22,174 nt of DNA, from positions 1 through 22,174 of the IMG/VR virus record IMGVR_UViG_2869924733_000011; one strand, given 5' to 3'. Source of the stretch: a virus (lineage: Duplodnaviria; Heunggongvirae; Uroviricota; Caudoviricetes). Under the pieces are notes generated by a model, which saw only the letters and a program-made list of their open reading frames with translations, was not told the DNA's origin and made no database searches. The translations under genes and the position numbers were made by a program. Shown here piece after piece: positions 4,012-8,702 of this stretch (positions are counted from its first letter, which is position 1; every line of letters starts with the position of its first letter).

Positions 4012-4575
4012 TTACTCAACGTCAAACGCCCGAATTGAAGCCAAATCATCCAGACCGCTCAGCTCCTCTTTCATTTCACGCTGACGGCGATAAATCTCAT
4101 CGTTGCGATCGACCTGCGCCTGCACCATTGCTGCCGCCAGTTCTTCCAGTTCCGGCATCGACAGTTTCACCTGCTGATTATCCGCATCACTCCACACCAT
4201 ATGTGTTTGTGCCGCGACAGATTTTGCCAGCATGACTACCGGGGACAGGCGGCCCAGTGAGTCGGGGCCAGCATTCCAGATACGACCGTTCCATTCAAAC
4301 GTGAACGGCTTCGCCTCCTGTTCTGTGCGCCATGCTTCAATTTCCTGACGTCTGGCCTCTCTGGCCGCTTCCAGCATTTCTGGTGTCACAGTGAATGGGG
4401 CTATCTCACCCCATTTGCCGCTTTGCAGTTCCTGCCAGATTTGCTGCCCCGTCGGAGCGACATCATCAGCGGTGGCTGTGTAGGGGACTGCCTGGTCCCT
4501 GTCGTCAAAAAAAACGTCACAGTCTACTGCGCCACTTTCGGTATAACGGGGATTAATGATTTTTTTAATTTCCAC
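4012..4575 (-). CDS. Hypothetical phage protein downstream of tail fibre 2; possible tail fibre assembly/chaperone by position only
   Basis: Likely start is GTG at 4575 with GAGGAA Shine-Dalgarno (the track's upstream Met looks like spurious extension). It begins 11 bp after the upstream ORF stop. It lacks the conserved lambda Tfa C-terminus, so the function call rests on gene order. Confidence 0.4.
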
Positions 4576-4585
4576 GGTGCATTCC

Positions 4586-5999
4586 TCACGATGTGCGAAT
4601 AAAAAGCCCGGGCATTGCGCCAGAGACATGTGCATCCGGCACCCCGGACAGGGCGCAATATGACCCCGGTAATGAATGCTCTGAACATCCCGTAATGAAA
4701 AATTGTGGGGATGCTATATACGTTCCGGTGGGAGTACTGGTCACTGAAATCCCCACCGGTCCCAGTCGTGAGCCTCTGTATGACCGCCCCCTGACAAGTC
4801 TGATGACTTTATCACCGTCAGCTTCTCCCTGGTACGCAGCAATAATCAGCCCGCCAATGTCAGGGTCTCCCCATCTGTTGCGGACAGAGCTCGCCACGAT
4901 TCTGTAAATAATATCTTCTGTGGTTATATTTATTTTCACCCAGTCAGTCAGAAATCCAGATAAGAGCCGGTAGCGGGCGTGATAAATGGGGCCGTTAATG
5001 CCGTAAAAAGTAAGGGATTTGGCTCTGCGCCGCGGTTCCCTTGTCTCAGGGCGTGCATCAGTCCACCGGATGCTGAGCACCCCTTCAAACAGTGTGTCGG
5101 GTATGATGATGCCGTAGGGGCCAGCAACGGAATATTCACCTGGCAGCGCATTCCTTACCCAGACCAGGAAATCATCCTTAGCGTCAAAACGGATAACATC
5201 TTCATACAGAAAAGCACGCCCAAAGCCGAATGCGCCGGGTATCGCCAGACGGCCTTTTGTCCGGTCGTAAATGTCGCTCTGTGCTTCCATCGTGGCTGCA
5301 CTTTTCAGCCCCAGACTATCCCGGGGACTTCTGTTGTGCCTTTTCGCCTGCTGCTGCGATTTCAGACAGATGGTTAGCCGTTTTCAGAGTGCCGGTCAGC
5401 GCAGCATCAATGTCATTTTTGGCCTGTTCTGCTGCGCGGGCATAACCTGCGGCATCCTGTGCGCTCTGTCCGGCTGCGGCTGCATTTGCTCCTGTGCTTG
5501 TCACATCTTCCGCAGTGGCCTTTCTGTCCTCAGCTGTGACGGTTGCATCCTGTCGGGCTTTCTCCGCAAAACGTTGTGCATCATCACGGGCCGTTGCGGC
5601 TGCCGCCACATCCTGCGCCGTCTGCTGTGCGTTTCCGGCTGCAGCCCCGGCACTCTGCTGCGCCTGCGCCACCATTTCCTCAAAGCGTTTGACGACATCC
5701 GGTTTCAGGTCGCCCTCATCAGGAGCAATCAGAAAGTCATTCAGCGTGCCGGGCTTTGAGTCGTCGTATACAGCAATGTCGCCAACACAGTACTCATCGC
5801 GCCAGTCCGGTTTCAGATATACGCAGTATTTCCCGGTCTGCGCTTCAAATGAATATTCACCATCAGCGCCCGTTACCACCTCAGCAACCGTCCGCATCAC
5901 CACTTCTGAGGTGTTTACACAGGATTTCAGAATAATATGGCATCCGGACATGGGGATACCTGCGCCATCAGTCAGCGCACCTGATATCACTACAGACAT
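4586..5999 (-). pseudogene. Second side tail fibre gene, disrupted by a frameshift between 5290 and 5362
   Basis: N-terminal ORF 5316..5999 (MSVVISGALTDGAGIP...GTLNDFL...) has the lambda Stf N-terminal pattern plus an Ala/Gln-rich repeat region. A second frame is open from 5362 to 4586. The frames overlap at a CCCCGGG run. Confidence 0.55.
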
Positions 6000-6135
6000 A
6001 GTTTTTCTCGCGATAAATTAAATCAGGAAGAACCTTCCGGAGAGACGGGCCATTCAATGGCGTTGTATGAGGATTTATCAGTGATGGTGCTGAAATCCAT
6101 CGCCTGCAGCGATTTCGCGTAAATACGACAGGCTT

Positions 6136-6558
6136 TCAGCTTTTCTCGCTGATTAACCCCAGCAGCAGGTCTTCTTCCCATTCCCCTGTCCGGGCACTGA
6201 CCTGAGCCAGAAGGGCATCACGCTCATCTTCCGCTTTGAGTCTGTAGTCAAAGACAAATTCATCATTGCGGTAAAACCAGTAACCCGGCGCGGTAATCCG
6301 TCGGTTAGCGGTAATATCCGGAACTTCGATAACGCTGGCATTGCGTGGCTCGATGCCTGTCACATCCTTACCGACCCACACCACGCGACCATCTCCGGTG
6401 TAAGCTATTTTTATTGTGTCGCTGGCGAAATTCTTCAGCTCTTCATACCAGTTTTTTCCGTCTTCTGAAAAAAGCCAGGTAACATCATATTTTTTTGTCA
6501 TCTGGTATTGTTCTGCGGTTTTCGGATTACCCGCAGTAATATTTTTTAAATGCAACAT
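6136..6558 (-). CDS. Tail fibre assembly protein (P2 gpG / Mu gpU-like N-terminus)
   Basis: 140-aa ORF starting 2 nt after the stf stop; MLHLKNITAGNPKTAEQYQ...WYEE resembles my recollection of gpG/gpU-type Tfa N-termini. Approximate identification. Confidence 0.5.
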   Translation of the reverse strand: MLHLKNITAGNPKTAEQYQMTKKYDVTWLFSEDGKNWYEELKNFASDTIKIAYTGDGRVVWVGKDVTGIEPRNASVIEVPDITANRRITAPGYWFYRNDEFVFDYRLKAEDERDALLAQVSARTGEWEEDLLLGLISEKS

Positions 6559-6560
6559 TG

Positions 6561-8687
6561 TTAAACGCTCGCCACGTTATACCAGGTACCATTAATCAGT
6601 TTTTGCAGCGGTCGGTAATACACACCGTCAACGTTATCCGCTGAGTTACGGTGGGTATCCGATATCTTTACCCCTGATAGCCCGTGTCCCGAAGGTGCGC
6701 GAAATGTCCACGAAACGGTGTTACTGCCGGGGCCGTAATACATTTCATGGCCATATCGCACATCCTGTACCCCCTCAGTTCGATGTTTATAGCGGGCATC
6801 GAAGTTTCCGTAATTTAACGGAATTACCTGTCCGTTTACGGCGAACGTGATGCTGTTATCTGTATTCCTCTGGCTGAAAAAATGCCAGCCTGAATCATCA
6901 CCAAGCTCTGCAACAACAGGCCTGGATGGATTACCCCACAAACAAAACGCTGCATTTTTCGTGGAGTTGTTGGCGCTGGATAACGTGAATTTTCTGGCAG
7001 TTCCGGCCTGAATATTCTTAAAAGCAATAGCCACGCCATTCTGAAAACGAAATACATGCTGTCCATTCGCATAAACATCCAGCAGACCATCGCCATTTTG
7101 TTTAAACCCGGTATCGTTATCTCCTAAAACGATTGAACTTCCACCTAACGCATTCGTCGTACCAATGCCAAGGCAACCATTAATGACGGCATTAACCAGA
7201 ATATTTAGTGTATCCCATTTGAGATTCATCAGGTCTTTAACCCGGCCGCCAGCGAGGCGGTGTCTCCATTTGAAATATTCATTACCGTTATCCGCCGTTT
7301 CAAACCACATGTAGGAATCGGTGTCTGCATCCGAATCATTTTTAAATCCAATCTTCGCCCAGTCAGTATTCCGAATCCAGGCAAGGATTGAGTCGTTTTC
7401 AAAAGTAAGTCCACCGGACAAGGTATCGCCTGTCTTTTGGACAGCGTTATCAGCCTTGTTTACCGTTTCCTGTAAACCGAGGTATTCGATAACGGCGGCA
7501 ACGGTCGATTTCGCAAGAATATCCCGCCCGACTTTTGTCAGGGTTGCCAGGCTGGCGACATCATTCCCCGTAAAATACGGAAACCTGTCTGCCGCAGTAG
7601 CAAGCCCCGCCAGCGCCGTCAGAGTGGCATCTTTCGGTTGCTTACCCGCAAGCGCGTTAGTCATGGTGGTCGCAAAATTCGGGTCGTTGCCCAGCGCCGC
7701 CGCCAGTTCATTCAGCGTGTTCAGTGCATCAGGCGACGAGTCCACGAGGGCAGCAATCGCGGCCATAACATAAGCCGTACTGGCGATCTGAGTATTATTA
7801 GTCCCCTTTGGCGCAGTGGGTGTGGTTGGCGTTCCGGTCAGAGCCGGACTGTTCAGGGGCGCTTTCTTGTTTGTTTCATCCATTACCACCTTAACCGCTT
7901 TCGCTGTCGCGGCCAGTGACTCGGATGCACTGTTGGTCGCACTGCTGAGCTGCACTATCCCCTTTTTCGTCGTGCTCGCATCTTCCAGAGATACGACATC
8001 AGCAATATCCTCTGCCCGTTTTGCTGCTGTCTCAGCGCGCATTGCCGCGGATTCTGCCGCGCTTTTGCTCTGCGCTGCCGCCGTCGCACTGCCTGCAGAC
8101 TCTGTCGCCTTAGAGGATGCCGTCGTGGCACTGCCCTTCGCTGCTGACGCCTGTTTAGTCGCCTCATCTTTTGAAGCAGACGCAGATGATGCCGATGACG
8201 CTGCCGAACCGGCTGACGTGCTGGCTGCGCGTGCTGAGCCTGCAGCATCAGTCGCATTGGTTGCCGCCTCACTGGCAGATGTGCCGGCATCCCTGGCTGA
8301 CTTCTTCGCGGCTGCCGTATTCTGTGCCACCGCGGACGCGTTACGCGCCACCTCTTCCACCATCAGTTCAAAACGTCGCAGTGCCTCCGGACAGACATCA
8401 TCCTCCGTCATGGCACCGAGAAAATCATTCAGCGTACCTGGTCTGGAACCTTCACAGACGGTAATGGTTCCGGCGTGTGAAGGCGGAAAACCTTCAACCA
8501 GCAGGGTGACGCTGTACTGGCCATACTCAACATCCATGCTGTAACGCCCGGCTTCATCCGGATTTTCAGAGGCCACCGTGTTCACCACCACCGTGGTACT
8601 GTTACGTTTTGCTTTCAGCTGGATTGTGCAATTCTGTACCGGTTTTCCTGTGCCGTCTTTCAGTACACCTGAAATCTTTACTGCCAT
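6561..8687 (-). CDS. stf: Side tail fibre protein Stf (lambda-like)
   Basis: The true start is probably the ATG at 8687 (track start 8693 is a GTG). MAVKISGVLKDGTGKPVQNCTIQLKAKRNSTTVVVNTVASENPDEAGRYSMDVEYGQYSV is near-identical to the lambda Stf N-terminus, followed by Ala/Ser/Thr-rich repeats and a C-terminal globular domain. Confidence 0.9.
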   Translation of the reverse strand: MAVKISGVLKDGTGKPVQNCTIQLKAKRNSTTVVVNTVASENPDEAGRYSMDVEYGQYSVTLLVEGFPPSHAGTITVCEGSRPGTLNDFLGAMTEDDVCPEALRRFELMVEEVARNASAVAQNTAAAKKSARDAGTSASEAATNATDAAGSARAASTSAGSAASSASSASASKDEATKQASAAKGSATTASSKATESAGSATAAAQSKSAAESAAMRAETAAKRAEDIADVVSLEDASTTKKGIVQLSSATNSASESLAATAKAVKVVMDETNKKAPLNSPALTGTPTTPTAPKGTNNTQIASTAYVMAAIAALVDSSPDALNTLNELAAALGNDPNFATTMTNALAGKQPKDATLTALAGLATAADRFPYFTGNDVASLATLTKVGRDILAKSTVAAVIEYLGLQETVNKADNAVQKTGDTLSGGLTFENDSILAWIRNTDWAKIGFKNDSDADTDSYMWFETADNGNEYFKWRHRLAGGRVKDLMNLKWDTLNILVNAVINGCLGIGTTNALGGSSIVLGDNDTGFKQNGDGLLDVYANGQHVFRFQNGVAIAFKNIQAGTARKFTLSSANNSTKNAAFCLWGNPSRPVVAELGDDSGWHFFSQRNTDNSITFAVNGQVIPLNYGNFDARYKHRTEGVQDVRYGHEMYYGPGSNTVSWTFRAPSGHGLSGVKISDTHRNSADNVDGVYYRPLQKLINGTWYNVASV

Positions 8688-8702
8688 ATTCACCCCACAA
8701 AA

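Follow-up and report, generated by a model that had tools for sequence, protein, structure and literature searches.

Why does the end of one prophage carry two tail-fibre cassettes one behind the other, each with its own partner gene, and is this arrangement an inherited phage module or an accident of one genome? The question is raised by a stretch of 22,174 nucleotides (nt) from a virus of the Caudoviricetes (IMG/VR record IMGVR_UViG_2869924733_000011, positions 1–22,174, hereafter the window, which means the whole stretch analysed), in which the minus strand carries four fibre-related genes, all pointing the same way and one after the other: the side tail fibre gene stf, tfa, a second fibre gene and a gene of the DUF4376 family. 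The answer proposed here, to which a probability of about 85% is given, is that the region is the fibre and cargo end of a defunct lambda-type prophage of Shigella dysenteriae, which carries an inherited two-fibre module, now a fossil, followed by the effector gene ipaHe.

In the direction of falling coordinates, the minus strand reads gpJ fragment, lom, stf, tfa, second fibre gene and DUF4376 gene, after which the convergent ipaHe follows on the plus strand. A sequence-only reading of the window had described the cassettes as tandem, on the same strand and not inverted, and the layout is indeed so. The spacers between the four module genes are 2 nt (stf/tfa), 23 nt (tfa/fibre 2) and 10 nt (fibre 2/DUF4376), and only stf and the DUF4376 gene are open frames. 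The unit is bracketed by two terminator-like hairpins on the minus strand, one upstream at 8704–8725 between lom and stf (8-pair stem, 7 GC pairs, T run), the other downstream at 3875–3896, after the DUF4376 gene and facing the 3′ end of ipaH (9-pair stem, 7 GC pairs, T run), and a terminator scan found no strong site of this kind inside the unit; these calls are consensus matches only. From the close spacing and the bracketing hairpins, with no strong one inside, we infer that the four genes form one transcription unit, which would be a late unit in intact relatives.

The first fibre gene, stf (6561–8687, minus strand), is a single uninterrupted frame of 708 amino acids (aa). Its product matches the profile PF08400 (6.5e-69) and also Phage_fiber_2 and Gp34_trimer; residues 1–94 match the solved N-terminal collar domain of the Ur-lambda Stf (9e7m, 2.4e-49), and the tip matches fibre S of phage Mu (5yvq_A, 1e-71). 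The protein thus joins an N-terminal collar of the lambda type, via a shaft rich in Ala and Ser, to a tip that resembles Mu S. The PF08400 collar, the open frame, the place after gpJ and lom and the neighbouring Tfa gene (though frameshifted) are all those of a lambda-type Stf. The enteroinvasive Escherichia coli (EIEC) strain RMDEC465 (locus L001) is the closest intact relative, 96% identical over 5 kb, and served as the reference for frameshifts. Aligned with this copy, stf is 315 nt shorter, in frame, at a site near 8218 in the Ala/Ser-rich shaft, and the gap is flanked by the direct repeat CGTCAGCCGG. Since the 708-aa form also adjoins an intact tfa in another locus (L022), the 315-nt difference is a variation in length and no sign of decay.

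The gene after stf (6023–6558, minus strand) is a pseudogene of the Tfa / Mu U family PF02413, that is, of the chaperone of fibre 1. Relative to EIEC RMDEC465, ten bases (ACGAAGATAA on the coding strand) are deleted between 6147 and 6146; the frameshifted product has 140 codons and ends at a TGA stop (6136–6138), and the conserved C-terminus is stranded in the open reading frame (ORF) 6023–6181. The Pfam profile Caudo_TAP (PF02413) is split between the two frames, with positions 2–98 of 131 in 6136–6558 and positions 100–131 in 6023–6181, so the variable N-terminal and conserved C-terminal parts, which form one polypeptide in this family, are separated here. The intact tfa orthologue matches Mu TfaU (5yvq_B, 7.8e-37). 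The segment 6136–6558 had been taken as a whole assembly gene and must now be regarded as only the first 140 codons of tfa; likewise, of the intact lambda-type stf cassette that had been proposed, the open stf stands, while tfa and fibre 2 are frameshifted and the prophage is a stump.

The second fibre gene (4586–5999, minus strand) is also a pseudogene. It had been read as one gene, and it consists of two ORFs in different frames, 5316–5999 (227 aa) and 4586–5290 (234 aa), split by one additional C in the run 5323–5326 (CCCCGGG versus CCCGGG), directly after which comes a TAG at 5316–5318. Its orthologue in EIEC RMDEC465 is a single ORF of 470 aa. The N-terminus matches PF08400 (5.6e-65), and phrog_2636, the type to which the C-terminal tip belongs, is matched over positions 1–184 (3.3e-104) and 327–567 (4e-91); clear fibre homology is thus found at both ends of 4586–5999. 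The diverged Stf-like N-terminus that had been suggested is confirmed by 42% identity to Stf over about 110 N-terminal residues, to which the similarity is confined. The tip type also occurs, at about 40% identity, on fibres anchored by PF12571 (P2 H-type), as expected of an exchangeable receptor-binding module. In the shaft, about 140 nt (5453–5595) are absent in many Shigella relatives (L010, L022, L026, L030 and L034).

Both truncated products, that of tfa and that of fibre 2, are found exactly in several independent S. dysenteriae assemblies, and for this reason the two breaks are judged to be real mutations of the lineage and not one-off sequencing errors. Programmed frameshifting at CCCCGGG was considered and rejected; the orthologues have CCCGGG and a single ORF. 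In related loci, fibre 2 and tfa show many different, independent breaks.

The fourth gene (4012–4575, minus strand) is open and encodes 187 aa from a GTG start at 4575; a Shine-Dalgarno site, GAGGA, precedes this start, which also gives the length (187 aa) that most homologues have. The protein matches PF14301 (4.6e-17; 62.9 bits against a cut-off of 25) and phrog_1141 (1.4e-88), and a Tfa C-terminus, whose absence had been noticed before, was not found by BLASTP against intact Tfa (E 0.77). The gene begins 10 nt downstream of the fibre 2 gene, and all relatives examined, temperate and virulent phages alike, have it immediately downstream of a fibre gene. The AlphaFold2 (AF2) model of the protein (predicted local distance difference test, pLDDT, 91) opens with three strands at the N-terminus and continues in a helical body bearing two beta-hairpins, an architecture that fits the one described for the Alteromonas chaperones, and all significant named viral matches of this model in a BFVD fold search are DUF4376 or tail-associated proteins. 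Sequence and profile searches gave no reliable PDB relatives of this protein or of the fibre 2 tip. The role of this partner had been left unassigned, and it can now be given a family function: DUF4376 is a family of fibre chaperones, one member of which is essential for active fibres in Alteromonas phage V22 and another of which is needed for the H-fibre of Campylobacter CJIE1, and models show these chaperones capping the fibre tip as trimers (PMC10579305, PMC7289586, PMC7882524). On this family assignment and gene position, the DUF4376 gene of the window is the predicted chaperone of the second fibre.

The same four genes follow each other in other genomes. The comparison with related prophages showed the order intact in EIEC RMDEC465, in phage vB_Apl-pPE4 (behind baseplate J), in phiP27 and in Rac-SA53, where the module is tail1–tail4 and stands directly before the att site. 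A 751-nt probe for the tfa-to-fibre 2 junction was covered by at least 80% in 88 of 5,426 complete E. coli genomes and in three phage records, which represent pPE4 and phiP27, and across these the junction, including the 23-nt spacer, is conserved at 86–93%. By tblastn, 87 loci were screened (80 viral-contig loci, six annotated loci and the window); tfa is directly upstream of a PF08400 fibre in 37 of them, and in 23 a PF08400 fibre directly after lom is the only side fibre. In the phiP27-like group with contractile tails, each of the four genes is an open frame and fibre 2 has 490–1061 aa, and the ipaH-linked Shigella and EIEC loci contain many different breaks. Because order and junction are conserved in other genomes and phages, the two-cassette layout is an inherited, widespread and already annotated phage module rather than a local accident. 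A literature search on tandem PF08400 fibres, phiP27 tail fibres and Rac-SA53 found no discussion of the arrangement. A contig scan with the fibre 2 anchor domain returned 10 loci only, all from Shigella or E. coli except for one weak match in a soil metagenome-assembled genome, and is uninformative on taxonomic breadth. The junction was also met, at 87% identity, in NZ_CM135829.1 (4.83 Mb), which is labelled E. coli DH5alpha; this is unexpected for a K-12 derivative, and the record may be a lysogen or mislabelled.

The history of the module is mosaic. From about 7431 (Stf codon 419) through ipaH, the window is 91–98% identical to the Shigella prophage loci L026 and L030, and the genes upstream in L026 (baseplate hub, gpV-apex spike, Baseplate_J and DUF2612) are those of a contractile-tail baseplate; the spike, Baseplate_J and DUF2612 also lie upstream in L030. 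The right-hand block is joined either to a lambda-type Stf front or to a baseplate-type fibre front, and the breakpoint lies inside the fibre gene, as is classical when unrelated phages exchange fibre genes. Through recombination within such genes, the block from about Stf codon 419 to ipaH moves between long-tailed prophages and those with contractile tails. An orthologous ipaHe locus in EIEC CFSAN029787 (L087, 9001–15211) shares the left flank of the window (DinI, tfa fragment, methyltransferase and ipaHe) and has one side fibre (470 aa) with DUF4376 directly after lom. Tandem and single-fibre forms hence exist at apparently the same prophage. An origin of the single-fibre ipaH loci from the tandem form, by deletion between the anchor domains, was rejected, as these loci begin with 82 codons of a third anchor allele, which is about 52% identical to each of the other two.

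The prophage itself is broken. A C-terminal fragment of gpJ, the tail tip protein, lies at 9421–10521 (minus strand; Pfam Phage_Tail_Tip 7.1e-34, Ig_GpJ_C 9.9e-26), and the gene is cut by an insertion sequence (IS) of the IS4 family at 10323–11669 (Nterm_IS4, DDE_Tnp_1); a further J Ig-domain fragment lies at 11733–12317. Upstream there are no tube, tape-measure or head genes, only IS transposase genes, namely IS110 (12553–13749), a truncated IS4 (13751–14812), IS3-type integrase-core genes (14809–16524) and IS91 (16778–17977), and the window breaks off within a gene for a phage-type integrase that has an Arm DNA-binding domain (20888–22174). The complete tail and head set of an intact prophage is thus missing upstream of the fibre genes. 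With gpJ cut by the IS4-family element and IS elements in place of the rest of the phage, the region is a prophage stump from which no virion can be made. The ratio of nonsynonymous to synonymous substitution rates (dN/dS) against the EIEC copy is 0.24–0.47, which places most of the divergence in the time of selection, before inactivation, and makes the breaks recent.

At the other end of the module lies ipaHe (2189–3832, plus strand; PF14496 NEL 6.1e-77), which encodes a type III secretion system effector, an E3 ubiquitin ligase with LRR and NEL domains; the product is the exact protein named IpaHe in S. dysenteriae. Exact matches of the ORF products come from this species, including strain 155-74, which has a 5.04-Mb chromosome. 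A convergent ipaH NEL domain is present within 1.5 kb of the DUF4376 gene in 42 of the 80 related viral-contig loci. The DUF4376 gene is typically the last phage gene before cargo or attachment site. Beyond ipaHe, the block 515–1873 contains a DinI-like gene (515–763, plus strand), an isolated third Tfa C-terminal fragment (879–1148, minus strand; PF02413 positions 75–130 of 131, 2.3e-26) and an SAM methyltransferase gene (1205–1873, plus strand). This block is 99.8% identical in EIEC, where it adjoins ipaHe, and in E. coli N47 it adjoins a prophage integrase and is without ipaH; it resembles the usual right-end block of lambdoid prophages, in which ipaHe and the DUF4376 cassette have been placed. 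The predicted prophage end of several phiP27-like loci is within a few bases of the DUF4376 gene. Between gpJ and stf lies lom (8752–9351, minus strand; PF06316 2.1e-120), which encodes an Ail/Lom outer membrane protein and is the gene that precedes stf in lambda-type phages.

Two origins of the tandem had been offered by the sequence-only reading, a phage with two receptor-binding fibres or a fusion of two prophage ends by recombination. The former fits the ancestry of the module, whose order is intact in vB_Apl-pPE4, Rac-SA53, phiP27 and EIEC. A fusion in this genome of two prophages, integrated or recombined end to end, would agree with cassettes that differ in tip and chaperone family, with the extra tfa fragment beyond ipaH, with the abundance of IS-driven rearrangements in Shigella genomes and with the dS against the EIEC copy, which is 0.04 for stf and 0.11–0.13 for fibre 2 and DUF4376 and suggests different histories; yet the junction with its 23-nt spacer recurs in the 88 complete E. 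coli genomes, in phiP27 and in pPE4, intact phages have the same order, no IS, att site or integrase separates the cassettes, and the mosaic breakpoint falls inside stf and not between them, so that a local fusion is quite improbable. The cassettes were rightly said to be of different kinds, and this bears on the idea that one stf-tfa cassette was recently duplicated in tandem and then diverged. Both fibres begin with a PF08400 domain, and the DNA encoding the PGTLNDFL motif is 71% identical between them over 48 nt, as a duplication would leave it, but the repeat search found no other DNA repeat between the cassettes, and the protein likeness ends with the 42% of the anchor end. The tips are Mu S-like in Stf and of the phrog_2636 type in fibre 2, the partners belong to PF02413 (Tfa) and PF14301 (DUF4376) with no detectable similarity (E 0.77), no homology was found between the two tips or the two chaperones, and the N-domains fall in separate clades that track position over many loci. 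Since the likeness is limited to the anchor end and the partners are in different Pfam families, a recent duplication is given very little credence; the cassettes are old paralogues at the anchor end and unrelated elsewhere.

An invertase-switched segment of the Mu G, P1 C or e14 type, which has degenerated, lost its invertase and become fixed in one orientation, is the least probable of all the explanations and can practically be set aside. The first pair is indeed of the type that Mu inverts (S/U), but neither in the window nor in any relative examined do the cassettes lie on opposite strands, no Hin/Gin-type invertase gene is located in or beside the unit, and the inverted repeats are short and weak only (16–23 nt at 77–88%); moreover, fibre 2 brings a complete N-terminal anchor of its own, whereas in Mu S the constant part is shared. 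Opposite cassettes, crossover sites and an adjacent invertase, by which such segments are recognised, are therefore all missing. Nor does it seem at all probable, though somewhat less remote than a duplication, that the module still works in this genome by readthrough, by frameshifting or in a tailocin-like particle. Its stf and DUF4376 genes are still open and dN/dS is below 1, which speaks for residual function, but orthologues read through both sites, which marks the shifts as mutations and not programmed signals, gpJ is disrupted with no tube, tape-measure or head genes upstream, and related Shigella loci carry many different independent breaks.

The preferred reading, a defunct prophage end with an inherited two-fibre module, implies a division of labour in intact relatives. 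In pair 1, a lambda Stf collar and shaft joined to a Mu S-like tip needs a chaperone of the Mu U/lambda Tfa type; in pair 2, a second fibre with its own collar-domain clade and another tip would be served by its own DUF4376-type chaperone. Each chaperone would be expected to fold its own trimeric fibre, and such virions might thereby have two receptor specificities. In the present genome, only ipaHe, and perhaps lom, is likely to matter to the cell. Several points weigh against this reading. The AF2 monomer model of the fibre 2 tip (234 aa, alignment of 15 sequences) has a mean pLDDT of 44.5 and is unusable, leaving homology as what suggests the tip fold; the additional C sits in a short homopolymer, and its reality rests on recurrence across assemblies, not on reads; and the sample of related loci is redundant and Shigella-rich, so the counts given above are not frequencies.

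Where two sets of fibres would dock on one virion is a question of wider interest. In the Ur-lambda virion, twelve copies of Stf ring the gpV/gpM junction and carry four trimeric fibres (PMC12617516). The first 95 codons of each PF08400 fibre (loci L001–L088 and the window) were grouped at 65% identity, and the anchors form four clades that track position, two of which occur directly after lom only. The remaining two belong to fibres in second position, with any tail type; most of these follow tfa directly and none follows lom. One second-position clade has 43 occurrences, of which 36 are directly after tfa and 0 directly after lom, in both lambda-type and contractile contexts. A further match (7kjk, 5e-06) links the EIEC orthologue of fibre 2 to gp40, the neck-bound collar spike of Vibrio phage XM1 (PMC10457771). 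It is conceivable, though rather doubtful, that fibre 2 docks not at the lambda gpV/gpM junction but at a site common to both virion types, for which the neck collar (as for XM1 gp40), or fibre 1 or the Tfa bound to it (so that the fibre would be branched), are candidates; physical linkage to tfa explains the clade pattern without any function. As for its significance, the window is one more decayed prophage end with ipaH in Shigella, and its four gene families are already annotated publicly; a movable right end composed of fibre tip, tfa, fibre 2, DUF4376 gene and ipaH helps explain the spread of ipaH copies.

Among known systems, Ur-lambda is the model for the front of the module. The order J, lom, stf, tfa is the same, and the N-terminal 94 residues of the window Stf match the Ur-lambda collar domain, whereas in the window tfa is frameshifted, the phage is a stump, and a second PF08400 fibre with a DUF4376 partner, absent in lambda, follows tfa. 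Pair 1 resembles the S/U pair of Mu (PDB 5yvq) in the Stf tip and in the intact tfa orthologue; unlike Mu, the window has no invertible segment, invertase or S′/U′ pair, and its anchor end is lambda-type, not Mu-type.

For pair 2, the nearest characterised systems are Alteromonas V22 gp27, A5 gp9 and the Campylobacter CJIE1 protein, which are of the same Pfam family, are encoded right after the fibre gene and have a similar predicted architecture of N-terminal strands, helical body and beta-hairpins. The window protein is related to them at the family level only, activity having been shown in V22 and CJIE1, and, within the tests made, the fibre 2 tip shows no relation to the Alteromonas knob domains.

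The whole module is best compared with phiP27, Rac-SA53 and vB_Apl-pPE4, which share the four-gene order and the conserved tfa-to-fibre 2 junction; identity between phiP27-like phages and the window is 91% in the fibre 2 anchor domain and 72–77% in the DUF4376 protein. Unlike in the window, fibre 1 of the phiP27-like phages follows baseplate genes and is without a PF08400 anchor, all four genes are open, fibre 2 is longer (490–1061 aa) and no ipaH comes after the module. Finally, with the exchangeable effector loci and the Shigella ipaH remnants (PMC3530523), the window shares an effector gene placed after the fibre genes at a prophage end, and there is no difference in principle between them: the window carries the tandem form, and the ipaHe locus of EIEC CFSAN029787 the single-fibre form.

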